A stretch of DNA of 64,000 bases, taken from the IMG/VR virus record IMGVR_UViG_3300033074_001459, positions 207-64,206 of that record. One strand, written 5' to 3'. A program made the translations under genes and the position numbers. This DNA is from a virus. Taxonomy: Duplodnaviria; Caudoviricetes. This document shows positions 632 through 64,000 of this stretch, piece by piece. Below the pieces are notes generated by a model. The model worked only from the letters and a program-made list of their open reading frames with translations. It did not search any database and was not told where the DNA came from. Every line of letters begins with the position of its first letter. Within the stretch, counting starts at the first letter, position 1.

Positions 632-3076
632 ATGCCTCAGACTCAAGGACCCGTAGTAATACAAAATCCCCGGCAGCAGAACTACTTTGGTGCCGCACTG
701 GGCCAGGGTCTGGGGCAGGCTGCCGGTGCAGTCCTCTCAGGGGTGGCCGGAGCTGCCGGTAAATTCCTGGGGAACCTCATTCACGAGGATCCCCAGGAGG
801 CTCTAATTAAGGCCAACACTGATGTAACCCGGTCGGCTAACCTGCAGAACGCCCTGGCCGCTTACCAGAACTGGTTGGCGGCTGGTGGCGAGGACCGGGT
901 AAACAGCCCAGAGAGCCGTTCTCAGTTTGCGCGGTCCTATCACCTGGATGATGAAGAGGCTGCTGCGTTTGAATCGTTGGCTGCAAGCACCGATACCAAG
1001 TCGGGAATCCTGCAAAAGGCTAACTCGAATGCCGCCACTTCCTCTGAGTTGTCTGACTACGAGCAGAAGCAGGAGGGGCTAGCACCATTTACAATCGGCG
1101 GTGGACTGTCTGCTTCGGTTCCTCCGCCTGAGATGACTGCTCAGGGAGGTACTTCCGCCCAAAATGGTAAGGCAAGCACAGGGGTAGCACCTGCTGCCGC
1201 TGCTTCCCTCGTGCAGCCCACGGTACCTACTGCCTCCAATACTTCCCCTGAGAAACTGGCGGAGATTCAAGCCAAAGCTGAGAGCCCTTTGACCCCTCCT
1301 GCTCCTTCGGCTCAGGCTGAGGCTCAGCAGAAGGAGTTGGCGGCTGGTACTACGGTAGCCCCGGCTAAGGAGCTTCCCCCTATCGCGCGTAAAGCAGACG
1401 CTCTCGTGGAGCCTCCGGCCCCCAAGCCTGCGCCTATCTCCCCGCAGGAGGCACAGAAGCGCAGGGCTTTGGCTAATCTGGCATTCACCCGGCTTCAGGG
1501 TACTATGGCCCAGTTGGGGCAAATTCGACTGGCCCACGAGAAGGGTACCGTTGACCCCAAAATGACCAACGCCGCTGTGGCTATGACTCAGGCTATGGAG
1601 TCTGACATCAACTCGATGGTGGAGCAGGGTTTGGCCCTTCAGGGGTTACCCCCTAATCGGGATGTCAACTTCGCGAAAGCCTCGTATCAGCTCGCTGCGT
1701 ACAAAGCATCTCACGACCCAGTTATGATGGAGCGCCTGAAGGCGGCGGGGTGGGATACCGACCAGATTATGAGCGAAGGCCAAAAGTGGGTAGACACTGC
1801 TTCCAAGATGAGTCCAGCCGCTTTGACTATGATTACGCCAATGGCCGACCTGTTCAAGTTTGAGCCCGGTAACCAGAGCACCATTAACGCATCTATCGCC
1901 AAGAACCACCTGGAGTTCAACAAGCAGGTGCACGCCGACGAGGTAAAACAGGCGAACGAGATGATGCAGCTACGGCGCAACGAGGACGCCCGTCAGGATA
2001 AGATACTAGCCACCAAGCTGGGACTCGATATGGAAAACGTCCGAGGGCTTCGGTTGTCCAATGACCTGAAGGAGCAATTGATGGGGCCTATGGCCGAGGA
2101 GGGACGCCTCAAGGTATCGCAGCTCCGCCAGCAAATTCAGCAACAGGCTAAGGAGTTCGGAGTTACTCTAGAGGGGAAAGAGCTGAACAATCTGGCTTCG
2201 TACGCGGTGCTGGTGGACCACGACTACGACGTATTTCTGAAGATGCAATCCCGCCAGGATACGGCAGACGCAGCAGCCGAAGCGAAGGCTTACGACCGTA
2301 TTACCAAAATCGAAAAAATCCGCGCCGACTACATCAACCAGACTAAGAAGGGCAACTTAGGGGCTTTGATTGATTCGGTCTCCAAGATTTCCCCAGCCGA
2401 GGTTGAGCGGAGAGCTAAGAAAAACCCGACCGCTTTTCAGGAGGCGCTGTCCCTGGTGGCTGAAGGTACTCCCACAGAAGCTGACAAGGTGCAAGCAGCC
2501 ATTGCAGTGGAGAGCCACGAATACGCCGAGTATCTGAGGCAACTCCACGATTACGACAAGGCCATCGAGAAGCAGAACGCGCTTATCACTCGGATTGTGG
2601 CCAAGCAAGACAAAGGCGTGGCAGCAGCCTTCACAGAGTGGCAGAAGGCGATTCGTGACCCTGCTAACGCTGGGCAGGTTGCTGCGCAAAAACGCAACCT
2701 GGATTTCCAGTTGCAATCTTATGCCCAGGGAGTGTACGACAAGCAGCGCACCCGGATTATCGACGCCGTGAAGGGTATGGATACCATCACCGCTAAGCAG
2801 GCTCTGCTGAACAGCCCTGACAAGCTGGATGTGATTCTCGGTAACTTTGCGGTTACGGACGGCAAAGTGAAAGTCACTTCAGGGGGCTTAAGCGACGAGG
2901 AGAAGGCTGCGCTATTCATTATGGCGAGGACGCCGGGTGGTGTTATGTCCCCAGACCAGTTCTCCAAGATGCAGCTAGGACCCCAGACCTTGGGACAAAG
3001 GTTTGGCAAAAATACACAAGAGGCATATAATGCCTATAGGAAATTCCAACAGGTGGTAGGCGCGAATGCAACTTGA
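632..3076 (+). CDS. Putative internal virion (DNA ejection) protein, 814 aa
   Basis: AAGGAG RBS; N-terminal GxxLGQGLGQ glycine-rich segment followed by long helical Ala/Gln/Lys-rich region; sits just before the giant SLT-bearing protein as in podoviruses. Confidence 0.6.
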   Translation: MPQTQGPVVIQNPRQQNYFGAALGQGLGQAAGAVLSGVAGAAGKFLGNLIHEDPQEALIKANTDVTRSANLQNALAAYQNWLAAGGEDRVNSPESRSQFARSYHLDDEEAAAFESLAASTDTKSGILQKANSNAATSSELSDYEQKQEGLAPFTIGGGLSASVPPPEMTAQGGTSAQNGKASTGVAPAAAASLVQPTVPTASNTSPEKLAEIQAKAESPLTPPAPSAQAEAQQKELAAGTTVAPAKELPPIARKADALVEPPAPKPAPISPQEAQKRRALANLAFTRLQGTMAQLGQIRLAHEKGTVDPKMTNAAVAMTQAMESDINSMVEQGLALQGLPPNRDVNFAKASYQLAAYKASHDPVMMERLKAAGWDTDQIMSEGQKWVDTASKMSPAALTMITPMADLFKFEPGNQSTINASIAKNHLEFNKQVHADEVKQANEMMQLRRNEDARQDKILATKLGLDMENVRGLRLSNDLKEQLMGPMAEEGRLKVSQLRQQIQQQAKEFGVTLEGKELNNLASYAVLVDHDYDVFLKMQSRQDTADAAAEAKAYDRITKIEKIRADYINQTKKGNLGALIDSVSKISPAEVERRAKKNPTAFQEALSLVAEGTPTEADKVQAAIAVESHEYAEYLRQLHDYDKAIEKQNALITRIVAKQDKGVAAAFTEWQKAIRDPANAGQVAAQKRNLDFQLQSYAQGVYDKQRTRIIDAVKGMDTITAKQALLNSPDKLDVILGNFAVTDGKVKVTSGGLSDEEKAALFIMARTPGGVMSPDQFSKMQLGPQTLGQRFGKNTQEAYNAYRKFQQVVGANAT

Positions 3077-6000
3077 CCCCCAGGCCGCAGAACTATTGAT
3101 GATGCCTGAGAAGAAGGAGGAGCCCCCCGCTCCTCCTTCCTCTATGCCAGTTCAGGAGGACGCGGTGCCTGATGACGCTGCCGCCTTGCTGGATGTTCCA
3201 GCTCAGCCTGTTCCCTCGAACAACAAAGGTACCGTGGTTATGGACGAATGGACCAAGGCCACGGTGGCTGACTTGCTCAAACCCAAGCAAGAGCAGGTGG
3301 CCAAGTACCCCCAGGCTACGCCATACGACGTAGCGAGAGTTGCCACCGAGTCCGGCATAGGGCTACCCAACGAGCCCGGTCCCCGGGAGCAGCCCACCCT
3401 GCTGCCAGGACGAAAAGACCAGGTTAGCTACGTGCGTCAGTCTGTGTACGGCGGTGCTGACGTGGCCGGGCTGAAGGATGCGCCTTTAGGCGGAGCCTAC
3501 CTCCTACGAAAGTACGCCAACGAGAACGGTCTGGAAGTACTATTCACCAGCGGCGCTCGCCAGAATGGTGGTGACAGCTACCACGATTTCGCCGAGGCTG
3601 TAGACGTGCGTATTATGAAGCGCGGAAAGTCTGGGCAGCTTTACGCTATGAGCCCAGAGGAGGAAGTGCAGTGGGGGGTCAAGCTGGGCAAGAAGGCCGG
3701 ATGGGCTTCGATGCTCAACGAGATTGGTTTTGACCCCGGTGGGCACAAGACCGGCGACCACTTGCACTTCGCCTGGGGCGTGGAGCGCAACCTGAAAGGC
3801 GACCCTAGTCACCACCTTCTGAATGAGCGATACCCGGAAGATGCCAACTATCTGAAGATGAACCCCAGCGCCAAGCTGGCCCCGGCTGGTGACAAGAACC
3901 GCAGCCGTATACCGGCTATGGCCGAAGTCATCGCTAAGGCCGAGGGGCTCGACCCGGACATCTTCGTCAGAATGGTGCAAGCAGAGTCTAACTTCGACCC
4001 GGCAGCAGTCTCCTCAGTGGGGGCTACCGGTCTGGTTCAGATGATGCCAGACACGGTCAAGGAAGTAGCCGCTCAGCTAGGGGTATCCCCCGAGGAGTAT
4101 TACGCTAGCCCCCACATGCAGCTCAAGTTCGGGGCTCAGTATCTCAAGACCCAGCTCAAAGCCAACGGCGGAAACTACGCCAGGGCGCTGGCTGCCTATA
4201 ACGCAGGTCCCGGTGCTCTGGACGAGTTCAAGAAGGGCAAAGAGATTTACGCCGAGACTCGGAACTACGTCAAGAATATCCTTGGCGATGTTCCTGATTC
4301 GGGGATAGCCAGCGAGCAGGATGCGATTGCAGCCATTGTGAATGGTACCGGCCGCACCCTGGACCCGGACCACGAGAAGAAAGCCGTCCAGCACCTGAGC
4401 AACGGAGTCAAATCAGAGTCCGAGGGGTTCCTCTCTCGACTCTGGGAGTACGGAGAGAATGCGCTCAGTAAGATTCCGGGTATGCAAGGGGCCGCCCTTG
4501 CTTCAGAAGCATCTCGTAAGGGCTCTTTGGAAGCAGTCATCGAAGACCCATCGTCCAGATATCGCAAGCAGATAGCCGATGTATCGGATTTTGCCGGTCT
4601 GGGAATGGGGCTTGACCATTTCCTTCCCTGGTTCCAAGAGAAGCTAGAAACCCGAGAGTCTCAAAAGGCCGAGGTGGCTGACCACAATCTGTTCGACCAG
4701 GTATTCGGAGAGAACGGAGCCGTCCAGCGCAACATCCCGTCCTTGATTGGGATGTACGTAGGTGGCGGAGTAATACACAAAGCCCTCAAAGGGCTGCCTA
4801 TATTCTCGGCTGCAGGCAAGGGCACGGCAAGCGCACTGGATACCCTGGCCTCCAAGTCTGCCAACCCTATGATTACCAACCTGCGTGCTATGACCGCAGG
4901 AGGGGCTGGTAGTCAGACGGCTAAGTTCACAGCCGATTTGCTGGAAAGCTCTGCAGTAGGGGCTACAATGATGGGAGTCAGCGGAGCTGTAGACTGGCTC
5001 ACCACCGAAGGGAATGACCCCATCTCAGACCCTGCGGGTTTGGCCAAGGCAGTGGTGGCCCATAGCGCCATAGGCGGAGGGTTGGGCATATTCTTGGGCA
5101 CGTCCTTGCCTATGTTGGGGGCTACCCTTCTCAACACCGCCGGTAATCTGGCTGGTAAGTCGCCTATGGCCAACAACCTGATAGGGGCTATAAGCGAATT
5201 CTACCAAGGTGCTAGCACAATGCAGCGGGCGTCTATGCGTACCATTGCAGGGGCCGGACTGGGCGGAGCCCTTGGAGCCGCTTCTGATATGCTGGGAATA
5301 ACGTCCACCGTATTTGGAGAGGACTCAGGCAACTTGGGTCTTACGGCAGGTACAGGAATAGGCGGAGCTGCTGGGCTCGGCGTTGTCCCAGTCTTGTCCA
5401 AGGTTATGAATTGGAGCGGCCTGTCCAAAAAGCTGGCCGATTCTCCTATGGGCAAAGCTGCCGCAGAGTACGCCGGTAAGGTTGTAGACAATCTGAACAC
5501 GGCGCAACTCCGGGCTATGACCAAAGACATTCTGGATTCGACTGACCAGGCTATGGACCTGAGTTACCGTGACCGTACGTTCCGTATGGCCAACGGCGCA
5601 GACCTGATGCTGACCAAGTCCTTGGAGTCTCTCAAGGGCAACATCACGGAATCGGCCAAGAAAGCTACCATAGCTCTGTCCGAGAAGCAGAAGCTGGATA
5701 CCGAATTCCAGACTATGGTGCAGCAGATGGAGGCCGGTGAGAAGTCTATGCCCCAGGCTGTAGACTTCCTGAACTCCAAGCAGCAGTTGGAAGCGGAGTT
5801 CGCCGAACTACAGAAGCAGGGTGCGCAACTGGCTGAACAGGTGAAGAAGGGGCAAGCACCCGGTGCGGCTCCTATCCCCGGCCTGTCTCCAGAAACCCAG
5901 CAAAGCCTGGGAGGTGCGGCTACGCAGGCGCAGCAGATGTCCGCAGCCCAGGTCAGTGGCACGTTGATTCAGGCCAAAATCGCCGAGGTTCAGAATCGTA

Positions 6001-9000
6001 TTGAGGGTATGAACGACATCCTCAAAAAGGATAAGGACCTGAATGCGCAGGTTATGCGCCTGACCAACAACCGGAATGCTATGACCCAGAGAAAGGCTGC
6101 TTACGAAGCAAAGTCCCTGGAACTCACCAAGCTGGCCGAAGACTCCAAAGCTGTGCTAGAGGGATTTCAGGATACCGAGAAAACCCTAAGCAACCTTCAG
6201 TCCAAATTCCAGGACATTATGAAGAAGGCGCAATCTCCCGAGGATTTCAGGGCAGACTTTGGGGATGTAATCGAGCTGCCCAAAGTATCAGAAACTGTGG
6301 ATAGCACCCTGCTAGACCCGGTAAAGATGCGGGAAGCGCATAAGGATGTTCTGGCCGATTTCGTGAATCAGGTGATGCACAAGTCGGTATTCCAGGGGTC
6401 TACGCCTGTTCCGGCCGAGCTGATTAACGACCTGTCCGGTCAGTATATGACTATGCGGGCCAAGGGCGGCAAGCTGCGCGAGAATGCCAAGACCGTATTT
6501 GGTGACCTGAAAGAACGAGTCAGCAGCCTGAAAAAGGAGCTGAACGTGAAGAGCAGTGATTCCGGCGCTTTGATAAAAGCGTACAGGGATTCACTGAGCA
6601 CCGAGAAGGTCAAAGGCGTCTTCAGTGCTGACAAGAAGTTGCTGGAGAAGAAGGCCCAAACCCTGCCATTCGACAAGTCCAAGGTACACCAGGGCGGCAA
6701 GTGGATGGCTATTGATAGCACGGTGCTATACAAGGATTGGTACAACAAAGCCATAGACCATGAGATGGGTCAGCTAGAATGGCACCAGCACAATACAGCC
6801 AGGGCTATCGAAAGAGGTATTGATGTAGGGGACCTGGACCCCACCACCCCTATTCCAGAGCCCCAACCTGTAACCCGGGAGCAGGCCATCGTCAGCCTCA
6901 ACAAGCGCATATCCGATTCGGCCAAGACCTGGAGAGAACAGCTTATGTGGGGTGACTATACCCCGTTGGAGAACGGCAAGGCTGACTTGATTGAGAAGCT
7001 GGGTTACGCCCAGGCTCATATGGATTTGGGAGAGTCTCACCTGATTCTGAACGTCGGTGAGGATATGAACCGTAAGGTTCTGTCTCAAGAAGTCACGAAG
7101 ATGTACAAGCAACAGAAGATGCAGGAGCTGAAAGACCTGCTCTCTGAAATCGAGGCTACCGAGAAGTTGGTATCCGGGCCGTTAGCCAATCCCATAATTC
7201 CTGATTTGAAGAAGGCCAGTGACACGGGCAAGCCGTACTCCACGGCTGTGTCCGGTCCATACGCTATGGGGGCCGAACCCCGAGAGATGCTGAACCCGGA
7301 GAAAACCGTGCAGTACCTCTCCAAGCGCATTCAGCAGTTGGAAGAGGTAGTCAAGGGACAACCCTTCACCGATGCCGAGAAGTACCAACTGTATCTGAAA
7401 AACGGAGGCAACCTGAGTATGTCTCCGGCGGCTGTACAGGAGTTCGTAAAGAACGGCGGCGACCTGTCCAAAGCATCTCCCGAGGTTCGGGCGTTCATCG
7501 ACTACAACACCCTGCACCACATTGAAGAAATCAAGCGAGTTCGATGGCTGGACCGAAATGTTATCGGACAGGCAGCAGGAGGCAGTGAGCGCATCGTTTC
7601 CGCCAGTCGCGAACTCCGAGCAGCAGGTATCCCCGAGCTGTCTGACCCTACGGTACAACCCATCATCAAGTTCGTTGAGGAGACTTTGTCCCAGATCGAC
7701 TCGGCCAAGATTATGGACTACAACCAGTTCGTGTCCGATATGATTCGGTCGGATTCTTTTCATATGCGCGACCTGCAGGGTATCGCTTCCAAGGGCTGGC
7801 AAGACCTGATTGAGGGCCGCAACCGAGCTGTTCACGTGGTGATGGAGGAGATGATTGTTCCTGCCTTCAACAATGAGTTCTCCAGGTTCAAGGAAGCCCT
7901 GGGCAAAGAAATGACTCCTGTAGAGGAGGCCGCATTCTTTCGGGAGATGGCCGACTCCGTAGAAGACCTGGGCGAAATGAAGGCGTTCAAGGAGAAGTAC
8001 AAGGACAAGGCTGAGGGGCTCATCAAGCTGCACTACGGCGTGCAGAGCGTGTTCGAAATGATTCGTGCCAACAGCCCGGAGCTATACGATTGGGCGCGTG
8101 CCAACTACTGGCCTCACCGGTGGAAGAAGCTGGCCGAGCACAACTCCCTGGCCAAGGCCCTGGGCAAGGTGGGCATCTCGGCCGAGATGGCTTCAGAGCA
8201 CGCGCGTGAGCACCCTACCTTGAAGTACGCGGACACTCAGCGCGAAGAATTCCGTAATATGCTAAAGAAGAAGCGTATTACGGAAGAGGAACTCCTCGGG
8301 GAGTTTGATGACGACCGCGCCAAGCTGTTGGAGTATGGACGAGAGCCTGCACAACAAGCACAGTGGGACCGACTCACCGTCAAGGAAAAGGAAAAGTTGC
8401 GCAAGGTGGCCGACAAGAAGGCTATGTTGCTGCTGGCTGATGACCCGGTATTAGACCCCCGGGAGCTGTACCGTATGCAGTTCTCCAGCGTTTGGAGAGC
8501 TGACGCGGTTCGCCGACTGCTGCGTACCTGGAATAATACGCACGTCCCGGCCATTCTGAAAGACGGCTCCAGCAAGATGTACCGTCTGATGGAGATTGGG
8601 GAGGGTAAGGGCAACTACCAGGTAGGCGAGATGGTTAACGGCAAGGTGGGCAAGCTCCGTCCCTACCACAACCTGGGTGAGATGGAGAGCTTCAAAAACG
8701 TGAAGTTCCGGCACCCGGACTATGCTGAACCTGTGAACGCCAAGGATATTTGGATTCACCCGGAGCTGTGGGGCTACCTCAACAATTTTGTGGGTGGGGA
8801 TACCCGGCCCTACACCGGGGCTATGGGTACGCTTGCACGGGGTTGGGAACTGGGTATGAACGTGGTTCGTAATTCGGTTCTGATTGGTCCGTTCTTCTCC
8901 CACATGCATCAGATGATTAGCGGTTCGATGGGTGAGTTCTGGCGCACCCCGATGCGGGCTGCCAACCTGATGGGTGCGGGTAAAGCCATCCGTGTGCGAG

Positions 9001-10613
9001 GATTGGAAGGGTCGGCTTCTCTGGCCGAGGCCGTACGTTCTGGTCTGAACGTCAAGATTATGGAACACGGGACTCAAGCCATCGCCCACAGCTTGGTGCA
9101 AGACTACGGCCTGGACACGGCCAACAAAATCTACGGGGTCGAGAACCTTGGATTCCTGAAATTCTTGCAGGCTATGGACCCAACCGACCCGATGAACAAG
9201 GAAGCTCGCAAGCAGTTGGGCACGGTGGGTGGATTCGTAGCCGACACCGTAGGCACCCTGACCAAAGCAGACTACGTGATGAACCGCGAAATGCTGTTCA
9301 AGCCTATCGAGCAGGGGCAGTTGGCAGGGTTCTGGTTCCGTACTATGGAGTACCTGAGAGAGCACCAAGCCGAGCTGATGGAGCTTCCTCCAGAGCGTCG
9401 TATGGCGGTAGCTCAGCAGTGGGCGGCCGATATGACCAACCGGTATATGGGTACGCTCCCTGGAGCCCTGGTCAACAACCCCATACGGCAGGTCATCAAC
9501 AAATCGGTTATGACCCCGTCCTGGTGGATGTCCAAGGCGTACACCATTGCTGATGGTATCGACAGCGCGGTGTTCATCGCTGCGCACAAGGCGTCTGGCG
9601 GTCGTATCAAGCGTTCCCTGGCTCAGGCAATCGGGCGAGAGGCGTTCTCGATGTATCCACCAGAAGTCCGTATGGCTGCTCGTACCAGAATGGCTACCGG
9701 TATCGCAGCCGGGCTGATCGGGTCCTTCGCCAGCGTTATTGCAGCACAGTACATCATAGACCGCACGATGCCTTGGGAAGGCAGCCCACCAGACAAGTGG
9801 CTGCACGTCCGGTTCGGTGGAAACTACTACACCGGCCCGGTCCAGGGCTTCACTCGTGACCTGTTCAAGGACATTTTGCATATCTACGGCAACTATGCTG
9901 ACGGCAAAGGAGTTATGGAGAACGTATTCGACACCCTGGGCCGGGCAGTGTCGCGCACCCTGGCTCCCCCGGTCAAGGGTGTAGCCGCCATCCTCGGTGC
10001 CAACCTCCCGGGTATGACGCAGAGGGATGGAGGATTCTCGGAGCGGGCTCTCGGTTACCTGGACGAGTACTCCTCTCAGCTCTCGTCGGCCCCGGAACTG
10101 GCCGGGTTGGACAGCAACGCAACCTTCTCAGACCTGGCTGCCAAGGTATTCTACCCGTTTCTGTCTGAGGACAGGAAGCGGGAAATCTCGGCCAAGACTC
10201 TAACCAGTGAGCAATACCTGGCTCGTATAGGTGGATTCTTCGATACCAAAGATGAAGGCGAGTTTATGCGTGCGCGAGGAGAAATCCACGACCGTAAACG
10301 GGCTATTGAAGCAGAAGACGTAAGGAGGCTATCCCCTTATCTGAACAAGATACGGCTGTACTATAACTCTGGCGATACCGCCAAAATGACCGACGCTATG
10401 AAGTCCTTGATGAATGCTTATTCACAGGGTACTCCTGTCACTGACCGGGCTTTGAAAGCCCTATATCCCAATGGCTACAGAATGAGCCAGCAGAAGCTAT
10501 CTTCCTTGATCCGACGTGCTATCAATCCAGACTCCGCTGCCTTCCAAGGAGCAGGCCCGGAGACTGTATTGGGTATGGTTAACCTAACTGGCGAATTGGA
10601 TGACGACGAATGA
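3066..10613 (+). CDS. Giant internal virion/ejection protein with M15-type Zn peptidase and lytic transglycosylase (SLT) domains, 2515 aa
   Basis: SYHDFAEAVD (H-x6-D) plus DHLH (H-x-H) is an LAS/M15 motif set. VQAESNF, GATGLVQMMPDT, ALAAYNAGPG and ETRNYV are SLT motifs. The rest is helical. Confidence 0.8.
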   Translation: MQLDPQAAELLMMPEKKEEPPAPPSSMPVQEDAVPDDAAALLDVPAQPVPSNNKGTVVMDEWTKATVADLLKPKQEQVAKYPQATPYDVARVATESGIGLPNEPGPREQPTLLPGRKDQVSYVRQSVYGGADVAGLKDAPLGGAYLLRKYANENGLEVLFTSGARQNGGDSYHDFAEAVDVRIMKRGKSGQLYAMSPEEEVQWGVKLGKKAGWASMLNEIGFDPGGHKTGDHLHFAWGVERNLKGDPSHHLLNERYPEDANYLKMNPSAKLAPAGDKNRSRIPAMAEVIAKAEGLDPDIFVRMVQAESNFDPAAVSSVGATGLVQMMPDTVKEVAAQLGVSPEEYYASPHMQLKFGAQYLKTQLKANGGNYARALAAYNAGPGALDEFKKGKEIYAETRNYVKNILGDVPDSGIASEQDAIAAIVNGTGRTLDPDHEKKAVQHLSNGVKSESEGFLSRLWEYGENALSKIPGMQGAALASEASRKGSLEAVIEDPSSRYRKQIADVSDFAGLGMGLDHFLPWFQEKLETRESQKAEVADHNLFDQVFGENGAVQRNIPSLIGMYVGGGVIHKALKGLPIFSAAGKGTASALDTLASKSANPMITNLRAMTAGGAGSQTAKFTADLLESSAVGATMMGVSGAVDWLTTEGNDPISDPAGLAKAVVAHSAIGGGLGIFLGTSLPMLGATLLNTAGNLAGKSPMANNLIGAISEFYQGASTMQRASMRTIAGAGLGGALGAASDMLGITSTVFGEDSGNLGLTAGTGIGGAAGLGVVPVLSKVMNWSGLSKKLADSPMGKAAAEYAGKVVDNLNTAQLRAMTKDILDSTDQAMDLSYRDRTFRMANGADLMLTKSLESLKGNITESAKKATIALSEKQKLDTEFQTMVQQMEAGEKSMPQAVDFLNSKQQLEAEFAELQKQGAQLAEQVKKGQAPGAAPIPGLSPETQQSLGGAATQAQQMSAAQVSGTLIQAKIAEVQNRIEGMNDILKKDKDLNAQVMRLTNNRNAMTQRKAAYEAKSLELTKLAEDSKAVLEGFQDTEKTLSNLQSKFQDIMKKAQSPEDFRADFGDVIELPKVSETVDSTLLDPVKMREAHKDVLADFVNQVMHKSVFQGSTPVPAELINDLSGQYMTMRAKGGKLRENAKTVFGDLKERVSSLKKELNVKSSDSGALIKAYRDSLSTEKVKGVFSADKKLLEKKAQTLPFDKSKVHQGGKWMAIDSTVLYKDWYNKAIDHEMGQLEWHQHNTARAIERGIDVGDLDPTTPIPEPQPVTREQAIVSLNKRISDSAKTWREQLMWGDYTPLENGKADLIEKLGYAQAHMDLGESHLILNVGEDMNRKVLSQEVTKMYKQQKMQELKDLLSEIEATEKLVSGPLANPIIPDLKKASDTGKPYSTAVSGPYAMGAEPREMLNPEKTVQYLSKRIQQLEEVVKGQPFTDAEKYQLYLKNGGNLSMSPAAVQEFVKNGGDLSKASPEVRAFIDYNTLHHIEEIKRVRWLDRNVIGQAAGGSERIVSASRELRAAGIPELSDPTVQPIIKFVEETLSQIDSAKIMDYNQFVSDMIRSDSFHMRDLQGIASKGWQDLIEGRNRAVHVVMEEMIVPAFNNEFSRFKEALGKEMTPVEEAAFFREMADSVEDLGEMKAFKEKYKDKAEGLIKLHYGVQSVFEMIRANSPELYDWARANYWPHRWKKLAEHNSLAKALGKVGISAEMASEHAREHPTLKYADTQREEFRNMLKKKRITEEELLGEFDDDRAKLLEYGREPAQQAQWDRLTVKEKEKLRKVADKKAMLLLADDPVLDPRELYRMQFSSVWRADAVRRLLRTWNNTHVPAILKDGSSKMYRLMEIGEGKGNYQVGEMVNGKVGKLRPYHNLGEMESFKNVKFRHPDYAEPVNAKDIWIHPELWGYLNNFVGGDTRPYTGAMGTLARGWELGMNVVRNSVLIGPFFSHMHQMISGSMGEFWRTPMRAANLMGAGKAIRVRGLEGSASLAEAVRSGLNVKIMEHGTQAIAHSLVQDYGLDTANKIYGVENLGFLKFLQAMDPTDPMNKEARKQLGTVGGFVADTVGTLTKADYVMNREMLFKPIEQGQLAGFWFRTMEYLREHQAELMELPPERRMAVAQQWAADMTNRYMGTLPGALVNNPIRQVINKSVMTPSWWMSKAYTIADGIDSAVFIAAHKASGGRIKRSLAQAIGREAFSMYPPEVRMAARTRMATGIAAGLIGSFASVIAAQYIIDRTMPWEGSPPDKWLHVRFGGNYYTGPVQGFTRDLFKDILHIYGNYADGKGVMENVFDTLGRAVSRTLAPPVKGVAAILGANLPGMTQRDGGFSERALGYLDEYSSQLSSAPELAGLDSNATFSDLAAKVFYPFLSEDRKREISAKTLTSEQYLARIGGFFDTKDEGEFMRARGEIHDRKRAIEAEDVRRLSPYLNKIRLYYNSGDTAKMTDAMKSLMNAYSQGTPVTDRALKALYPNGYRMSQQKLSSLIRRAINPDSAAFQGAGPETVLGMVNLTGELDDDE

Positions 10614-11821
10614 GAGCGGATCAAATCAAGCACAGGTTTCTTTTTGTGACGGCCACGGCGGCCGCGCAGGACACCCTGCAAATGTTCTCCTGGAGGCTTC
10701 TTCAGGAGGGGCACGAGATAGGAGTTATGGGACCCAATGGTATGAACCTACCAGAACAGGTGCAGTTCTTTACCAGGATACCTGATGCAATGGAATATGC
10801 CCCGGAGGTAATCATCCCGCTGGATGAGCCCAGCATAAGGGCATCGGTGAACATCTTCGGCAAGAAGCCCAAGTTCGTAAATAAGGATCCACTGGCCTAC
10901 CAGATTGCAAGCACTCGTTCTTTTGGACTAAGCCTGATGGCGAAAGCTGGTCTGCAGACGGTCCCATACTACGTGCTGAACAACCAGAACGATATGCTTC
11001 GGTTCCGGGCCAAGCAGGCAGAGTCTGAAGTACCCTGGGAACTGTTCCCAGACCATCCTGATATGCTGCACCCGGCCCCAGATGGTGACCTTGGAATCCA
11101 AATGGTACAGGGTCAAACCGTATCAGTAGGCTTCCTTATCAGCGGCAAGCACCTGTGCAAGCCCTCCTTTGTATACTCCCCTCTGCTGGGACTGCTGGAG
11201 AAGGGGGGCATCCGGGACTTCCGGGGTATGGTGGTATGCCCTGTAAGCGGAGGAGTCCTGGAATCAGTGGGTACTAAAATCCGCCACGCTATCTCGGCTA
11301 TGGGGGCTGTAGGTTTCGTGTTCGTGGACCTGTTGTTCCAGGATGACGCCACCAAGCCGCTGGTTTCCCGAATCAGTTTGATACCCCCAAAGGGATTCTT
11401 TGCTGCACTGCTGCTCTCAGACCTGATTCAGCAATCTGTAGGCCAGGCTTTGTACAGCGTAGCCAAGGGAATCAGCTTCAACTGGAAGTTAAAGACGGGG
11501 TGCCTATCCTGGGCTCGGTTGATAACCGACTGCTCCTCCAGAACGGAGTTCCCAGAGGAGCAGGGATTTTACCAAACATCTTCCACAGCAGAAGAATATG
11601 AGGTAGGATTCCACGTAAGCACTGAGACAGATGTACCAGACGTGTTATGGGAGCTTCGCCCTTCGGCCGAGGTAAAGCTAAGGACGGAGGAGCTAGGCGC
11701 TCGGTTGTTGTCAGACCTGGCAGGGTTGGGGATTGTCCCGTGCAGAGGTACTCAGCCCGTGGAACCCGCCCCAGAAGAGGTTCAAGAAGAGGAGGCAGAA
11801 TATGAGTATGCAGAGGGGTAG
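10610..11821 (+). CDS. Divergent PurD-like ATP-grasp fold protein
   Basis: RLLQEGHEI, TRSFGLSLMAKAGLQTVP and GAVGFVFVDLLFQ resemble phage phosphoribosylamine-glycine-ligase-like proteins; canonical catalytic residues are not obvious; ATGA overlap with the upstream gene. Confidence 0.45.
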   Translation: MRADQIKHRFLFVTATAAAQDTLQMFSWRLLQEGHEIGVMGPNGMNLPEQVQFFTRIPDAMEYAPEVIIPLDEPSIRASVNIFGKKPKFVNKDPLAYQIASTRSFGLSLMAKAGLQTVPYYVLNNQNDMLRFRAKQAESEVPWELFPDHPDMLHPAPDGDLGIQMVQGQTVSVGFLISGKHLCKPSFVYSPLLGLLEKGGIRDFRGMVVCPVSGGVLESVGTKIRHAISAMGAVGFVFVDLLFQDDATKPLVSRISLIPPKGFFAALLLSDLIQQSVGQALYSVAKGISFNWKLKTGCLSWARLITDCSSRTEFPEEQGFYQTSSTAEEYEVGFHVSTETDVPDVLWELRPSAEVKLRTEELGARLLSDLAGLGIVPCRGTQPVEPAPEEVQEEEAEYEYAEG

Positions 11822-12200
11822 CACCCCAACACCGGTTATCCCCGGTACCTGGACCGGGGCTACTACGTGGACCCCCGCCTCTTCGGCGGCACCTTTCCCG
11901 GTCTACACTGCTGCCGCTCCTGTTGCGGTTACGGCCGGGTCTGTAACCTGCTCCAACGTGGCTACGGGTGCAAGTGCTATTGTGGCTGCCGCATCCACCA
12001 CCCGGAGAAAGCTACTGCTTCACAACTCCGGGTCTGTAACCGTCTACCTCAACAACGGAGCTGCTGCGGATAATACTAAATTTCCTCTTCCAGCAGGTTC
12101 GGGAATTGAATTCACATCCGAAGAGGGAACCGCCCAACTTGAATGGCGAGCATATTCAGCCTCCGCAGGGGTGCTGGGTATTATCGTAGTGGAGGGTTAA
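11802..12200 (+). CDS. Small beta-rich virion structural protein
   Basis: GAGGAGG RBS before ATG 11802; RRKLLLHNSGSVTVYL and FPLPAG pattern typical of small phage structural proteins. Confidence 0.55.
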   Translation: MSMQRGSTPTPVIPGTWTGATTWTPASSAAPFPVYTAAAPVAVTAGSVTCSNVATGASAIVAAASTTRRKLLLHNSGSVTVYLNNGAAADNTKFPLPAGSGIEFTSEEGTAQLEWRAYSASAGVLGIIVVEG

Positions 12201-56346: not shown

Positions 56347-56826
56347 ATGGAAGGATTAAATCCCCTAGGCGGTAGATTCCAAACTCTGCACTCGTTCTGC
56401 ATTCAGAGCGCGACTGTGGATATGAAGGGGTCCACCGGAGATCAACTGACCTTCGTCGTACTCCACGATAAGATCGAGCTGATGTTGTTCGGATTCGAGG
56501 TTATGGCCGCCGGTGGCGCTATGACCGTGGCCGGACAACTACGCCTTGACAAGATTCCGTTGAACAACGGTACCCGAGTCAATGGCGTAAACGCCAACGC
56601 GACTGTTACCTGGGCGGGAGCCACTGCAAGCATCTACAGCAAGGTCACCAGTGACCTGAACCTGTATGCCACCGCTGTATCCCCCTCTCCAGTGGCCGGG
56701 CCCGAATCCCGACCCACCGCAGTACGTGGTGACGTGCTTATCGTCAACCTCATCACTCAGGGCACGGGTGCAGGTGCTCAAACGGCTCGTCCGTTTATCC
56801 TGTACCGCGAACGTCCGTTGACCTAA
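56347..56826 (+). CDS. Capsid decoration/minor head protein candidate
   Basis: Beta-rich protein directly after the MCP; AGGAGG RBS. Confidence 0.5.
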   Translation: MEGLNPLGGRFQTLHSFCIQSATVDMKGSTGDQLTFVVLHDKIELMLFGFEVMAAGGAMTVAGQLRLDKIPLNNGTRVNGVNANATVTWAGATASIYSKVTSDLNLYATAVSPSPVAGPESRPTAVRGDVLIVNLITQGTGAGAQTARPFILYRERPLT

Positions 56827-56834: not shown

Positions 56835-57437
56835 ATGCAAGCAGCAGTCCTAGTTGCACCCAAGTCCTTCAATCCGCGCGGTAATTACGTGATGTACGCG
56901 GGAGAGTACCGGGCCTCCGTCTTTGTCCAGGATGGGCATATGTTCGGCGAGAACGGGGACGACCTGGTATATACGTACAATACCGACCCGGACAAGGCGC
57001 GGCACCGTAACGTGCTTTATTGGATGAATTACAATGGGTACGCGATAAATGCCGAACTCCGCTCTGAGGTGCTCAAGATGCGGCGCAAAGCCGAGCTTGA
57101 GCAACGCATTGCGGAGGAAATGGAGCGACTGGATCAGGCTCACAAGAGGGAGCTGGAGGAATTGGAGAAGGAGCTGCAGGAGGCCCGGCGACGGGACCGC
57201 CAACGCAACCTCGGACCCATTCCTCCAAACCCCTCAGATCGGGTCATCCCGGAATTGGAGCTGTCGGAAACCGAGGAGCAGATTCTGTCTTCTCTGGGGC
57301 AGGATTACGCTATGCCTCCCCTTTCCGACGACGAGGATTTCCAGGACCCCGACTACGAAGCGGCGACCGCTCACGAGCTGCCGCCGTCTGCGCCTGCTCC
57401 GGCTACAGTGCGCCGAGGTAAAGCCGTTCGGCGCTAA
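56835..57437 (+). CDS. Hypothetical head-associated protein
   Basis: AAGGAG RBS; coiled coil plus acidic tail. Confidence 0.55.
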   Translation: MQAAVLVAPKSFNPRGNYVMYAGEYRASVFVQDGHMFGENGDDLVYTYNTDPDKARHRNVLYWMNYNGYAINAELRSEVLKMRRKAELEQRIAEEMERLDQAHKRELEELEKELQEARRRDRQRNLGPIPPNPSDRVIPELELSETEEQILSSLGQDYAMPPLSDDEDFQDPDYEAATAHELPPSAPAPATVRRGKAVRR

Positions 57438-58390: not shown

Positions 58391-59940
58391 ACCCGACCAG
58401 CCAGTTAAAGTCCCTCCCTATTTCCGATGTAGGGTTGGGGCTATACACTGACGTAAACCCTCTGCAAATCCCGTTAGGAGGTTGCGAGAGTTGTTCGAAC
58501 ATGGTTTGGGTAAATGGCTATCTGCGAGCGCGGCCTGGCGTAGCTACCGCTTTCACTCCGGCACCGAACGCCAACTCCGTAACTCACTTGAACTTCTACT
58601 CGGACCTGAGTGGGAATGTGCAACTTATGAGATTGTCCCTGAGCGGGACCACACTTTCTTTGCACAGACACAACGGGAGCTGGAATCTTGTATCCGGCGC
58701 AATCTCCGGCGGTTCCTCCGCTATCCAACCAACTTCTTGTAACTTCAAGGGTTCGTTCTGGTTCACCACCGGTGATGGGGAGCTGATGCACTATGACGGT
58801 ACCACCTTGAGTTCCGTCGATTCCCTTCAGTCCGACGCCATCCTTAAGGTGTTCGACAAGCCTCGTATCGTAGTGGCGGGGGATTCTCGACTGTTCATCG
58901 CCGATTGCCACGACGCTTCAGACGGCACCGGTACCCGGGTCCCTTATCGAATTGCCTGGTCTGACTTCCTGGACGGTACGGTTTGGAAGGGCGGAGTAGG
59001 CGCAGGCTCCAGCGGTTTTGTGGATTTGCCTAAGAACAATGAGCCCATTACCGGTTTGTATTACTCGAACTCTGGAATCTTGGTGTTCAAACCCAATCGC
59101 ATTTACCTGGGGTATGCAGCGGGCCCTCCGAAAAACTACGACTTCCGCGAGGTTGTGTCTGGTATAGGCTGCGTATCTCACGCCACCATCAAGCAGTACC
59201 GAGAAGGAATCATCCTGTGGCTGGGTGACGACAACATCTACGCAGGGGGCATCAACCGGCAACCGCAGGCCATCGGCGACCGCATTCGTCCTAGACTCCG
59301 GGAAGCTCTATTGCTATCCTCCATCGACAAAGCCAGGGCTGTTATCGACCGGCAGAATCATCTGTACCATCTCTTTTTGCCTGACGGGTCGGCCGACCAC
59401 AGCGGCGAGAACCTCCGAATCTTTACCGTGAACCTGAAGAACGGGAGCTGGTGGGAAGGTTCGTTCTCTGCTGAGGGGCTGAACATCACGGATGGGTTGG
59501 AGTACCGAGATGCCCCTTGGAGCAACCGGTTGCTATTGGCCACCATCGACGGCCGAATCCTGGAGTATTCCTTCAGCAATACGTCGGATGCGGGCGTACC
59601 ATTCAGTGCATCCTGGGTGAGTGGTACGATGTCGGTGAAATCGTTCGTAAACTCCATCGACCAGGCATCTTTACAGATGCTGCGGATAGTCAGCCCCAAC
59701 GAAGCTGCGGCCAAAGCAATGACGTTGCAAGCATTCATAGGGCAAGGACTGGACCGATTTGTCTCTAGCACCTTCGGGGTTCAGACCATAGACGGTGCAA
59801 GCAATATCTATACCAGTGCCCGCCCCAAAGCAGGCGAAACTATGAAGATTTCTCTGGCTACTGCTGATAGCTCCTCGATGCCCAAAATAGCCTCTATGAG
59901 TCTCGGAGTTATTCCGGTGACTCTGAATGTGAAGAGATAA
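58387..59940 (+). CDS. Tail nozzle / tubular protein B-like (beta-propeller)
   Basis: RIAWSD, IGCVSHATI, IGDRIR motifs typical of P22 gp10/T7 gp12-like proteins. Confidence 0.65.
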   Translation: MNPTSQLKSLPISDVGLGLYTDVNPLQIPLGGCESCSNMVWVNGYLRARPGVATAFTPAPNANSVTHLNFYSDLSGNVQLMRLSLSGTTLSLHRHNGSWNLVSGAISGGSSAIQPTSCNFKGSFWFTTGDGELMHYDGTTLSSVDSLQSDAILKVFDKPRIVVAGDSRLFIADCHDASDGTGTRVPYRIAWSDFLDGTVWKGGVGAGSSGFVDLPKNNEPITGLYYSNSGILVFKPNRIYLGYAAGPPKNYDFREVVSGIGCVSHATIKQYREGIILWLGDDNIYAGGINRQPQAIGDRIRPRLREALLLSSIDKARAVIDRQNHLYHLFLPDGSADHSGENLRIFTVNLKNGSWWEGSFSAEGLNITDGLEYRDAPWSNRLLLATIDGRILEYSFSNTSDAGVPFSASWVSGTMSVKSFVNSIDQASLQMLRIVSPNEAAAKAMTLQAFIGQGLDRFVSSTFGVQTIDGASNIYTSARPKAGETMKISLATADSSSMPKIASMSLGVIPVTLNVKR

Positions 59941-60851: not shown

Positions 60852-61832
60852 ATGGGATTTGGCGGCGGTGGTGGCGGCGGAGAGATTACCCAGTACAATC
60901 CGCAACCCAATGATCCTCACCCTGAACTGACTGGGCGGCTGGTTAACTCCTCTATCGACTCCTTGCGGGTGTTCCGCCCCTTCGGTGTTCACGGGGCAGG
61001 GTACCAGATGGCCAACCTTAGCCCTATGGGACAAATCTACACCCCTGGGCCTAACCAGTCACTGTACGGGAACCCGTACACGACGACCGGACACCAACCA
61101 TACTTCGGCGCATCCCCTCAGTATCCGACTCAAATCGGTATGGGCGGAGGCTCTGGTGGAGGTGCAGGCGCAGGCGGTGCAAGCAACAACACAGGATCTG
61201 GAGACAAACTCAGTGGATATGTACCACCAGCTACAGGGGCACTTCCGGCCGGAAGGGCTTACACCCAAGGAGGGGACCTTCTGGGTATGCTCAACGCCGC
61301 GCTGGCTACTCAGATTATCAATCCAAATCCTGGCGGGAATCCTGGATCTGGTGCTGGCCCTGGTGGTGGTGCTGGCTATCCCGGTTTGCCTCCTTGGGCT
61401 AATCCTCCGCAGCCTGATCCACAAGTAGGGGCTACCACCCCACCTCCTGCGGCAGCCTCGCCACCGGCATCTCCCAGTGTGTTCGAGGCTCCAACCCCTC
61501 CGGCGTATGACCCGGCAGTAGGTGGTCTAGGTATGGCTGACCCCTGGGCTGGTACTACCAACGCGCAGGGCGTAGCCGGAGGTACCAACTGGAATCCTGA
61601 CGGCACCTACAACGCGCAGGGGGCCTACTCGCCTATTGCCACCTGGGTGGACGCGAATGGGCAGCCGGTGGCCAATAATCCACAGGCGGTGCAAGCATAT
61701 ACCGCTCAAGACCCTTGGGTGTATACCCCGGGCGGCCCTATGCCTGAACCTCCTCAGAACAACCCGTATGCCCCTCCTGGCGGGTATGCAGGACAGACTC
61801 AGCAACAGCCTCAGCAAGGGGGTGCTAAGTAA
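60852..61832 (+). CDS. Gly/Pro-rich putative ejection protein
   Basis: MGFGGGGGG start; low complexity; AGGAGG RBS. Confidence 0.55.
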   Translation: MGFGGGGGGGEITQYNPQPNDPHPELTGRLVNSSIDSLRVFRPFGVHGAGYQMANLSPMGQIYTPGPNQSLYGNPYTTTGHQPYFGASPQYPTQIGMGGGSGGGAGAGGASNNTGSGDKLSGYVPPATGALPAGRAYTQGGDLLGMLNAALATQIINPNPGGNPGSGAGPGGGAGYPGLPPWANPPQPDPQVGATTPPPAAASPPASPSVFEAPTPPAYDPAVGGLGMADPWAGTTNAQGVAGGTNWNPDGTYNAQGAYSPIATWVDANGQPVANNPQAVQAYTAQDPWVYTPGGPMPEPPQNNPYAPPGGYAGQTQQQPQQGGAK

Positions 61833-62611
61833 TGGGAATGCAACAGGGAGGCAGTCAGCCCCAACAACCACAGCAGGGACAGCAGCAACAGCAGCCTCCG
61901 GCTCAGGGGGTTACTCCTACTGGAGCGCCTTTCGCCAACGTAGGCAGCGGGAACAATTTCGGTTTTGGTACGAGTCCGGCAGTCAATCAGGTAGGTGAGC
62001 AGGTACCCGACGCACCTCCGGGGGCTACCCTGCCAGGCCCTATCCCAGGGGCTCCGCAAGCTACCCGGAATGCCTTTATGCCTGCCGTGTTCACGGCACC
62101 GTATTACAATGCAGCAGCTACCGCCGGGAATTTGGGTACGATGCAGACTGCCGGTGTAGCGCCTTATGCTGCCAACTTTATGCAGCAGCAATTCTCGCCG
62201 ACTCTGAACCCTATGGAGCAGAGCTTTATGCAGGCAGGTTTGTCCAATGCCTCCAGAGCCCTGGAGCAGGGGATGCTGCGGCAGGAGTCTCAATTCGAGG
62301 ATACCCCGTTTCACTCTGCTCTCCCCCGGGCGCAGGGTGACGTTATGAGTCAGGTGGCTGATTCTCTGATTGGTCAGGGCTCTCAGTTGGGATTGCAGAG
62401 GATGCAGATGGCAAACCAGCTGGCACCCTTCCCGTTTAACTACGGGTTGCAAGCAGCGCAGGTTGGGCCTAATATGTCGGAGAGGTATTTCAATCTGCTG
62501 AACAACGCATACCAGCAGTACACCACGTTGCCCCTGGCTACGTATTCTCAGATTCCGATACCCAGTCCGGTAGTACAAACGAACTCAGGCGGCGGAGGGA
62601 GTAAGCTATAA
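61832..62611 (+). CDS. Gln-rich putative ejection protein
   Basis: TAATG overlap; ends GGGGSKL as is typical of pilot/ejection proteins. Confidence 0.55.
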   Translation: MGMQQGGSQPQQPQQGQQQQQPPAQGVTPTGAPFANVGSGNNFGFGTSPAVNQVGEQVPDAPPGATLPGPIPGAPQATRNAFMPAVFTAPYYNAAATAGNLGTMQTAGVAPYAANFMQQQFSPTLNPMEQSFMQAGLSNASRALEQGMLRQESQFEDTPFHSALPRAQGDVMSQVADSLIGQGSQLGLQRMQMANQLAPFPFNYGLQAAQVGPNMSERYFNLLNNAYQQYTTLPLATYSQIPIPSPVVQTNSGGGGSKL

Positions 62612-63227: not shown

Positions 63228-63259
63228 TACGGCCACAAGGAAGAGGAGGTGCAAGCAAC

Positions 63260-64000
63260 ATGCCACAGACCGACGAACTGAGAGAAGAGGAGTACACTCG
63301 TGCGTCTTACCCCGACTACACGAGTGCTGCGGACGATGCTGAGGCGTTGCTGGCACGTTATGCAGATTTAGACCGAGGGTACAAAGGTGAGCATCTATCC
63401 CCAGAGACTCAAGCGCAAGCCGAAGAACTCCGCAGACTGCAAGCAGATGCAGAAGCAGAGGGAGAGACCGTCGAGCACGAGGCTGCAGAGACCCCGCAGC
63501 AAGAGGCCAGTGAAGAGGACGGGTACGAGGAAGAGGGAGAGGTCATCCCCGACGATGATATGGAAGGACCTGTCATCCCCGATGGAGAGCGCCTAGACTC
63601 CCCTCAGTCTTTGGTGGCTGAGCGAGCCGCCGCTGTAGGTACCGGTTTGGAAGAAGCTGCCAAGGGTGCAAGCGAGCTGACGGAAACCCAGAAGCTGGAT
63701 GCATACATCAAGAAGTCGGTGGAAGACTGGGCGAAAAGTACCGGTAGGGATTACGAGGGGCTGTTTGCCAAATCGACTCCGAAACAGACTGGGCCTGCCG
63801 CTTCCCCCAGACCCGCTCCGCGCACCGGTGCCCCCGCTGCAGAGACTCGGGTGCAGACCAATGGTGGACAGCGTCGGCAGGATCTGGAGCGAGAGGCGTC
63901 TGGGTACCGAAATCAAGGTGGAGGAGCCCCAGCTCGTCCGAATCCTCCTGTCAAACCTGCAGAGAAGCCTAAAGTTGGCCGGTTTGACGACGGAGTACCC
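63260..64000 (+). CDS. Acidic N-terminal part of a putative internal virion protein (open at right edge)
   Basis: GAGGAGG RBS; ATG 63260 (MPQTDELREEEY…) with no stop before the window end. Confidence 0.65.
   Translation, partial: MPQTDELREEEYTRASYPDYTSAADDAEALLARYADLDRGYKGEHLSPETQAQAEELRRLQADAEAEGETVEHEAAETPQQEASEEDGYEEEGEVIPDDDMEGPVIPDGERLDSPQSLVAERAAAVGTGLEEAAKGASELTETQKLDAYIKKSVEDWAKSTGRDYEGLFAKSTPKQTGPAASPRPAPRTGAPAAETRVQTNGGQRRQDLEREASGYRNQGGGAPARPNPPVKPAEKPKVGRFDDGVP

Follow-up and report, generated by a model that had tools for sequence, protein, structure and literature searches.

An exact octamer under DNA-level selection in the genome of a phage lineage without cultured relatives

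The octamer TGCAAGCA is found in 34 exact copies in a 64,000-nucleotide stretch of viral DNA (Duplodnaviria; Caudoviricetes), hereafter the window, which covers bases 207-64206 of the single 64,206-bp IMG/VR record IMGVR_UViG_3300033074_001459. Neither composition nor codon usage nor any annotated gene accounts for this excess, and the word is a signal under selection at the DNA level, at silent as well as at replacement sites. It belongs to a species-level clade of phages, within which it turns over, and it appears to be one instance of a wider trait: in a phage family with PolA, UvsX and SbcCD genes, each lineage has its own over-represented word or words. The reading that we favour, still tentatively, is that TGCAAGCA is a recognition word owned by the phage, serving a putative lineage-specific factor and acting on DNA rather than on transcription.

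An exact DNA search located 25 copies on the plus strand and 9 on the minus strand, 28 of them inside genes, in several reading frames, and 6 in non-coding DNA (Table 1). Dinucleotide shuffles yield 2.24 ± 1.64 copies (largest value, 6), while Markov models of order 1 and 3 predict 2.4 and 4.0, respectively; with an excess of ~10-15-fold and a density of 0.53/kb, TGCAAGCA is the commonest 8-mer of the whole genome. An earlier note on this DNA had described a word far above expectation, present on both strands, in several frames and in non-coding regions, and this description holds (34 copies vs 2-4 expected); the 33 positions that it listed are all correct, and one copy, at 25256(+), had been missed. 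The word is also exact: its 24 one-mismatch neighbours occur 0-7 times each, their sum of 63 being close to the ~58 expected, and the remaining TGC-NN-GCA words occur 0-4 times each, so that other central dinucleotides are not equally frequent. Preferences in the flanks are weak, with a G at -1 in 20 of the 34 copies (P=1.6e-4) and in all six non-coding ones, a C at +1 and almost never a G at +2. Conserved positions are confined to -2..+1, and the fuller form of the word can be written as G-TGCAAGCA-C. The interrupted palindrome had also been taken as a hint of a dimeric binder, an argument that proved weak. The central AA varies no more than the arms do, TGCATGCA and TGCTAGCA, which are perfect palindromes, occur 0 and 3 times, and flank complementarity, as in a dyad extended to GGTGC..GCACC, is true on average only and fails site by site; TGCAAGCA is not a simple dimer palindrome. 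A literature search for the octamer yielded primer sequences only.

Selection at the DNA level is most directly seen in the coding copies. When synonymous codons are shuffled within each gene, 7.0 ± 1.4 copies are obtained (maximum 12) vs the 34 observed, so that the excess persists under a codon-preserving null. The encoded peptides permit TGCAAGCA, in any frame or orientation, in 82 contexts, 27 of which realise it, vs 1.9 predicted from the codon usage of the genome. Minor codons are used at the copies, namely CAA (30% of Gln), CTT (9% of Leu) and GCA (18% of Ala), in keeping with the previous impression that CAA-GCA and CTT-GCA are disfavoured elsewhere, and the frames avoid Cys codons, NTG-CAA-GCA, NTG-CTT-GCA and xxT-GCA-AGC-Axx being dominant and Cys-requiring frames rare. 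Seven copies can be aligned to a relative with 80% nucleotide identity (L002; terminase 90% identical in amino acids), where near-misses 2-4 substitutions away are found, and the outgroup L003 agrees with L002 at the aligned sites; the copies were therefore gained in the lineage of the window, at some amino-acid cost, as the differences from L002/L003 include changes of Met, Ile or Val to Leu and of Thr to Ser. The codon-preserving null, the synonymous opportunities and this comparison with relatives together back the initial proposal of a selected DNA-level signal.

The phylogenetic range of the word is narrow: it is retained in strains 94-98% identical to the window, absent from the 80% identical relative, and nearly so beyond it. 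In L242 (97.7% identical and lacking the terminase intein), three of the three overlapped sites are retained. The 94% identical L250/L251 carry 10 copies in 20.2 kb, with seven of nine aligned sites retained and two lost, four of the five control-region copies preserved in L251, and three new copies in a diverged allele of a DUF932 gene. No copy is present in L002, L003, L006, L001, L245, L246 or L247, the 13-kb fragments L002 and L003 being too short for word detection at this density (null maximum 6-7), and a single one in L244.

Along the genome, the density of TGCAAGCA reaches 3.7/kb in a non-coding control region, vs 0.5/kb elsewhere (Poisson P=9e-4). At the other extreme, between 4 and 19.5 kb only 1 of 21 synonymous opportunities is used, vs 26 of 61 elsewhere (Fisher P=0.001), and GTAATAC, another frequent word of this genome, is also sparse there (4 copies in 4000-19500). 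Most simply, this segment is probably a recently acquired mosaic module for tail and host range into which the words have not yet been written. Otherwise, spacing resembles random placement (coefficient of variation of the gaps 1.04 vs 0.96; P=0.28), with gaps of up to 6.9 and 8.6 kb, and the non-uniformity of positions within genes is not significant (Kolmogorov-Smirnov P=0.09). Genic copies are 16 sense vs 12 antisense (P=0.57). Orientation is clumped, with 8 changes round the circle vs 13.6 expected (P=0.02), and ~70% of the copies are '+' in both putative replication arms, as defined by gene orientation and GC skew. The control region itself (43300-44800) holds many short and inverted repeats, such as the CCCCTCCCCC / GGGGGAGGG arms and a 27-nt inverted repeat at 43432/43532; Rfam gave no match in it.

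Other lineages of the family carry other words. In L244/L243 (G+C 45%), TCTAGA occurs 65 times in 21.5 kb (21 in codon shuffles); in L247, TTATTAA occurs 78 times in 21.6 kb (38 in codon shuffles); in L006 and L001, TATTAC/GTAATAC reach 54-64 copies in 21.6 kb, with codon-shuffle comparisons of 64 vs 25 for TATTAC and 30 vs 13 for GTAATAC; and in the more distant L248 (41% terminase identity), ATCGAT occurs 32 times in 14.2 kb and TCGATTACA 9 times. The codon-shuffle test covered TCTAGA, TATTAC, TTATTAA and GTAATAC, all of them 10-15 standard deviations above the shuffles. In the window, L251, L006 and L247, the genomes examined in this respect, the density of the lineage words in the homologous non-coding region, a stretch of 1.4-2 kb that separates the divergent gene arms, is 2-7 times that elsewhere, with 4.7/kb vs 0.6/kb for TGCAAGCA in L251, 10.4/kb vs 2.4/kb for TATTAC in L006, and 7.1/kb vs 3.2/kb for TTATTAA in L247. 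The G+C content of the relatives ranges from 45 to 58%, and they therefore probably have different hosts. A candidate sister word of L245, CAGGTTGG, was rejected, as it comes from a tandem 15-nt array that encodes a pentapeptide-repeat protein upstream of PolA (L245:1400-1700), and not from a dispersed word.

Some side observations concern these words. L244 contains 217 copies of CTAG, a normally rare tetramer. The second word of the window, GTAATAC/GTATTAC, is present in 36 copies vs ~5 expected (for example at 44614, 44655, 24474, 40612 and 55266), and it is common to the distant relatives L001 and L006 at 3/kb. GTATTAC lies on the sense strand at 27 of the 36 sites (P=0.004), its extended form is CTTAAGTATTAC, and a 41-nt direct repeat (44579-44660) that closely precedes the early genes holds two GTAATAC copies, an arrangement that looks promoter-like.

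As to whether the words belong to the phage or to its host, L248 was found, in a scan of species genomes, on a contig (C89) of the Ardenticatenaceae (Chloroflexota) metagenome-assembled genome (MAG) G001. TCGATTACA occurs there 9 times on C89 and 4 times on C99, presumably the same phage, and ~28 times in the other 3.7 Mb, which equals the uniform expectation; TATCGATT occurs 4 and 5 times on C89 and C99, and 31 times elsewhere vs 113 for the uniform expectation. This concentration indicates that the L248 words are the phage's own, if the MAG is its host. TGCAAGCA is not enriched in G001 either (25 copies in 3.7 Mb vs 113 for the uniform expectation), and neither 301 Chloroflexota genomes nor 121 genomes of the order of G001 show an excess of GTGCAAGCAC or GTGCAAGCA, with a maximum of ~0.015/kb vs 0.11 and 0.31/kb in the phage. 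The bacterial genomes sampled are from Chloroflexota and WOR-3 only, with 422 Chloroflexota counted (301 + 121), and they are samples rather than an identified host; five of them, flagged as unpublished (G040, G147, G175, G229 and G332), enter the aggregate negative only. A host-wide iterated motif, one of the options first put forward, hence found no support among these 422 genomes and G001, the true host not being identified. Host-wide iterated words are known, such as HIP1 (GCGATCGC) in cyanobacteria and the uptake sequences USS and DUS of Pasteurellaceae and Neisseriaceae. Like them, TGCAAGCA belongs to the exact 8-12-mers at about one per kb that occur in all reading frames and are made by substitution. 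However, those are words of host chromosomes mirrored by resident phages, whereas here the L248 words stay within the phage contigs of the MAG, and enrichment is seen in none of the bacterial genomes searched. A lead to a shared host through other TGCAAGCA-rich viral contigs (L062, with 9 copies in 5.4 kb, and L085) was abandoned, as the yield was similar when a composition-matched control word was used (5 against 11 loci, each with at least four separate places), and these contigs therefore carry no weight; a triple-copy scan of other viral contigs returned mostly tandem arrays.

These data lead us to prefer a word owned by the phage, and we infer both that its reader is encoded by the lineage itself, rather than being a host-wide system, and that it acts on DNA. 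Selection has written the exact short site into the phage genome by means of rare synonymous codons and of conservative replacements in the proteins. The reader would bind the five co-oriented copies of the control region, maybe beside a physical genome end, plus the ~29 dispersed copies, and the bound copies would mark the phage DNA for a DNA transaction such as end protection, recombination-dependent replication or packaging. A candidate reader is the small LexA_DNA_bind winged-helix protein encoded just upstream of PolA, whose gene is 96% identical in the 94% relative L250 and was not detected at the corresponding position in L244/L245. Among 5.8 billion proteins, no other homologue of it was detected, and its structural model comprises a three-helix core only. 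Scans of ~50 small open reading frames (ORFs) with PHROGs and Pfam gave no Gam, ParB or methyltransferase as a possible reader. The region around the terminase, the sole one where window and L002 genes are comparable, offers some further observations. The 160-aa protein near the terminase is the most diverged from L002 (54% identity vs 77-97% for its neighbours), and an HTH_17 gene, which in L002 (L002:2938-3132), L003 and L246 separates the 160-aa gene from the one that precedes the terminase, is missing in the window (48863-48933). For the putative small terminase (48933-49550), AlphaFold gives an all-helical model of low confidence (pLDDT 63.5).

A wider version of the same idea, possible if rather doubtful, would have every lineage of the family write its own 'self' word (TGCAAGCA; TCTAGA, ATCGAT, TTATTAA, TATTAC), read by a fast-evolving phage factor that tells phage from host DNA, either as a Chi-like switch for SbcCD/UvsX replication or as dispersed packaging signals for the terminase. 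Several points weigh against a phage-owned word with a dedicated reader. No reader protein has been identified, and the LexA-like gene is no more than a lineage-specific candidate; at that distance, all the other genes are likewise shared. A 15.5-kb segment nearly devoid of the word would be strange if the function required coverage of the whole genome, unless this segment was recently acquired, and the retention of seven of nine sites in the 94% relative is not above the neutral expectation (P=0.25). The family words are also unlike in kind, with palindromic hexamers at ~3/kb vs an asymmetric octamer at 0.5/kb, so that reader and role are perhaps not common to all of them. Moreover, the link between the Ardenticatenaceae MAG and its phage is one of binning only, and, for TGCAAGCA itself, host ownership was assessed in sampled genomes only.

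The strongest of the other explanations, though an unlikely one, is that TGCAAGCA derives from the host, as the Chi-like sequence of a RecBCD/AddAB-type helicase-nuclease or another host-wide 'self' word; by mimicking it, the phage would shield its DNA ends and concatemers and draw in recombination. In common with the Chi site of E. coli, GCTGGTGG (PMC3784561), the word is an exact, non-palindromic octamer with all positions essential, over-represented in a phage and written into coding DNA. Chi is over-represented in phages without RecBCD inhibitors, including the virulent T5, with an observed/expected ratio of ~2.5 and 0.2/kb (Bobay, Touchon and Rocha 2013, PMC3784561), and the probably different hosts of relatives with 45-58% G+C would suit words taken from hosts. 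Orientation offers a further hint. L251, a 64,033-bp contig, ends with a poly-G run, GGGGGGGGGG, in the non-coding region (L251:1-80; window ~44375-44450), that is, at window position ~44,450 and ~70 nt past the three closest copies of TGCAAGCA; this contig end may mark where the genome physically ends, or the assembly may have broken at a G/C-rich stretch. Around ~44.45 kb, the six copies closest by on one side are all '+' and the four closest by on the other all '-', so that, if the physical end is real, these copies are oriented as an enzyme entering from the end and reading Chi needs, and the nearby cluster and the clumped orientations are compatible with this. However, the next 14 consecutive copies, more than 8.6 kb from the putative left end, have the orientation opposite to the Chi prediction. 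In addition, an excess of ~10-15-fold at 0.53/kb is 4-6 times stronger than the documented mimicry, and the phage has its own UvsX, SbcCD and RusA, a recombination set of the class that relies less on Chi (PMC3784561). The palindromic hexamers of sister lineages, at 3/kb, are unlike Chi, and no host genome with the word is known. The L248 words are absent from the rest of their MAG, the 422 sampled Chloroflexota genomes show no enrichment, and other TGCAAGCA-rich viral contigs are no commoner than for the control word.

A distinctly unlikely explanation is that the copies are genome-wide operators of a phage regulator, in the style of mycobacteriophage stoperators, where a repressor or activator such as the 81-aa LexA-like protein binds the cluster and the dispersed sites and blocks or tunes transcription. 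The five co-oriented copies lie in a divergent control region, and the LexA_DNA_bind gene is part of the word-bearing clade and was not found in L244/L245, its role in binding being that of a candidate. At 44277 and 44375, the reverse-strand TTGCAC also lies 17-18 nt from TAGTAT or TATGCT. Cluster A stoperators are reportedly lineage-specific as well and present at ~0.5/kb (Brown et al. 1997; Mavrich and Hatfull 2019), as tens of copies at the early control region and genome-wide, just as TGCAAGCA is. Nevertheless, stoperators, as in the sites of L5 gp71 (GGTGGMTGTCAAG), are 13 bp long, can vary in sequence, are mostly intergenic and follow the direction of transcription, whereas TGCAAGCA is 8-9 bp, exact (its one-mismatch variants are not enriched, which is unusual for operators), genic in 28 of 34 copies and free in orientation, 16:12 with respect to transcription. 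No integrase or other lysogeny gene was found among roughly 60 ORFs scanned with Pfam or PHROGs, and no repressor or lysogeny module has been identified. Nor is TGCAAGCA a promoter or transcription signal. The MotA box of T4 is (a/t)(a/t)TGCTT(t/c)A and its single-element late promoters are TATAAATA; the reverse complement of the word, TGCTTGCA, resembles the box and this phage has T4-like replication genes, but a TAnnnT partner stands at the MotA-type distance (11-13 bp) in only 1 of 34 sites, no extended consensus is found, and 12 of the 28 genic copies are antisense. With neither a -10 partner nor an orientation tied to transcription, the readings as a MotA box and as a sigma-70 promoter were rejected.

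It is improbable that the word is the product of a non-adaptive molecular drive, in which a sequence-specific nicking or mismatch enzyme, together with recombination replication, would convert near-cognate sites by biased gene conversion, as proposed for HIP1 or very-short-patch (VSP) repair. A drive would account for a word that accumulates wherever the protein tolerates it, with random-like spacing, an orientation that ignores transcription, and a seemingly recently acquired segment without it; the family is also rich in HNH_3 nucleases and has genes for recombination-dependent replication. Yet the sites arose by substitutions of various types, among them transversions and changes of amino acid, and therefore do not fit a single mismatch-repair bias, the one-mismatch neighbours are not depleted, and the sevenfold concentration in the control region suggests a function.

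Very improbable, too, is that the copies are start sites for the primase of the phage, as signals for lagging-strand priming, in spite of a word that is present on both strands, genome-wide and lineage-specific. The phage encodes a Toprim primase whose zinc finger has the form CPKC...CFSC, with a DnaB-like helicase next to it, and phage-encoded enzymes that read a short template word are known. T7 gp4, for instance, recognises 5'-GTC-3', and an 8-nt case exists in the NrS-1 PrimPol, whose recognition sequence is 5'-TTTGGTTA-3' (PMC8718748). Against this, spacing is irregular, with the long gaps mentioned above, strand use does not follow the two replication arms, and the window and L244 have almost the same zinc-binding domain although their words differ (TCTAGA in L244). 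Primases of the DnaG/T7 type read trinucleotides, none of which is common to the family words, and the enzyme here is of the DnaG/Toprim type and not an archaeo-eukaryotic primase (AEP) PrimPol; TGCAAGCA is not a priming grid. Finally, there is practically no chance of an artefact of composition, codon bias or repeated peptides, a reading ruled out by the codon shuffle and the count of synonymous opportunities: Cys avoidance does constrain the distribution of frames, but every null is exceeded by >15 standard deviations, the flanks are unrelated and six copies are non-coding.

The phage itself has no cultured relatives: INPHARED, queried with blastn and tblastn, returned either nothing or PolA matches of only ~22%. 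IMG/VR classes the record as linear and CheckV gives a completeness of 100%. A 522-aa ORF starting at 63260 runs in frame over the contig junction to a stop at 622, so the assembly is circularly closed and cut inside a gene. The main blocks of genes are listed in Table 1; no tRNA was found in the phage. As side observations, the large terminase (49547-51643) carries an intein (PF14890) and has 698 aa vs 528 aa in the intein-free L242, the terminase inteins of L002 and L246 are larger, and that of L002 bears an HNH_3 domain. The frame at 39153-39698 (-) is interrupted by one in-frame stop, its upstream part being a faint match to Methyltransf_23 (E=0.005). GATC is depleted ~3-fold in the window (80 vs ~244 expected from base composition) and ~14-fold in L001 (6 in 21.6 kb), which suggests GATC-directed restriction in the hosts.

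Table 1. Location of the TGCAAGCA copies and of the main regions of the window
Feature	Coordinates	Strand	Remarks
TGCAAGCA copy	982..989	+	gene 632-3076, sense, GCT GCA AGC ACC
TGCAAGCA copy	2490..2497	+	gene 632-3076, sense, GTG CAA GCA
TGCAAGCA copy	3976..3983	+	giant gene 3066-10613, sense, GTG CAA GCA
TGCAAGCA copy	10906..10913	+	gene 10610-11821, sense; sole copy between 4 and 19.5 kb
TGCAAGCA copy	19525..19532	-	tail-fibre-like gene 17874-19625, antisense, CTG CTT GCA
TGCAAGCA copy	19969..19976	-	gene 19635-20003, antisense
TGCAAGCA copy	24408..24415	+	SbcD-like gene 23493-24542 (-), antisense; retained in L250
TGCAAGCA copy	25256..25263	+	primase gene 24517-25341 (-), TGC TTG CAC; retained in L250; absent from earlier list
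TGCAAGCA copy	27752..27759	+	RecA/UvsX-like gene 27116-28288 (-), antisense; retained in L250
TGCAAGCA copy	30505..30512	+	PolA gene 29677-32574 (-), antisense; TGCGAGCA in L250
TGCAAGCA copy	33945..33952	-	gene 33699-34436 (-), sense; retained in L250
TGCAAGCA copy	37424..37431	+	HNH_3 gene 37343-37771 (-), antisense; retained in L250
TGCAAGCA copy	38544..38551	-	small ORF 38521-38700 (-), sense; retained in L250
TGCAAGCA copy	38780..38787	-	gene 38669-39145 (-), sense; AGCTTGCA in L250
TGCAAGCA copy	40044..40051	+	gene 39699-40097 (-), antisense; retained in L250
TGCAAGCA copy, cluster no. 1	43517..43524	+	non-coding; within repeat GCTAGCAG(T/G)GTGCAAGCA
TGCAAGCA copy, cluster no. 2	43698..43705	+	non-coding; retained in L251
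TGCAAGCA copy, cluster no. 3	44277..44284	+	non-coding; retained in L251
TGCAAGCA copy, cluster no. 4	44346..44353	+	non-coding; retained in L251
TGCAAGCA copy, cluster no. 5	44375..44382	+	non-coding; retained in L251, ~70 nt from L251 contig end
TGCAAGCA copy	48715..48722	-	fast-diverging gene 48381-48863, antisense; GTCATCGCT in L002 (Ile to Leu change)
TGCAAGCA copy	49420..49427	-	gene 48933-49550 directly upstream of large terminase, antisense; retained in L242; CTGGTAGCC in L002
TGCAAGCA copy	51865..51872	-	portal gene, antisense; retained in L242; ACACTAGCC in L002
TGCAAGCA copy	53068..53075	-	portal gene, antisense; retained in L242; ATGATGGCC in L002 (Met to Leu change)
TGCAAGCA copy	53674..53681	+	portal gene, sense; synonymous ATGCAGGCT in L002
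TGCAAGCA copy	56625..56632	+	gene 56347-56826, sense; ACTGCCACC in L002 (Thr to Ser change)
TGCAAGCA copy	56836..56843	+	overlaps start codon of gene 56835-57437
TGCAAGCA copy	59726..59733	+	structural gene 58387-59940, sense
TGCAAGCA copy	59796..59803	+	structural gene 58387-59940, sense
TGCAAGCA copy	61178..61185	+	gene 60852-61832, sense
TGCAAGCA copy	61690..61697	+	gene 60852-61832, sense
TGCAAGCA copy	62448..62455	+	gene 61832-62611, sense
TGCAAGCA copy	63250..63257	+	between ribosome-binding site and start codon of gene 63260
TGCAAGCA copy	63438..63445	+	inside long ORF 63260->622; nested ORF 63387-63596 in crude gene call
Non-coding control region, 1.4 kb	43355..44720 (43.35-44.72 kb)		between leftward replication arm and rightward early/late arm; five co-oriented TGCAAGCA copies
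Segment nearly free of TGCAAGCA	4000..19500	+	giant virion gene, tail and lysis genes
LexA_DNA_bind winged-helix gene, candidate reader	32517..32762	-	81 aa; just upstream of PolA
Rightward block	1-20.1 kb	+	virion, tail and lysis genes, including 2515-aa protein
Leftward block	20.3-43.35 kb	-	replication/recombination genes: RusA, SbcC/SbcD-like, Toprim primase, DnaB-like helicase, RecA/UvsX-like, PolA, SNF2 helicase
Early and head genes	3' of 44.72 kb	+	small rightward early ORFs, then large terminase (with intein), portal and head genes

A last point to consider is what such a word may mean for this family of phages. Exact words under genome-wide selection are known for a few systems, namely Chi, uptake sequences, HIP1 and stoperators, and here this signature is present in a phage family without any cultured relative, where words switch between relatives that are still 80% identical. 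The 15.5-kb tail segment free of the word indicates that word density can date mosaic acquisitions. If the reader is encoded by the phage, the words would reveal a sequence-specific DNA-handling system with a fast turnover of specificity, would serve as markers of lineage and of recently acquired modules, and may represent a new principle of self/non-self distinction in phage DNA metabolism.

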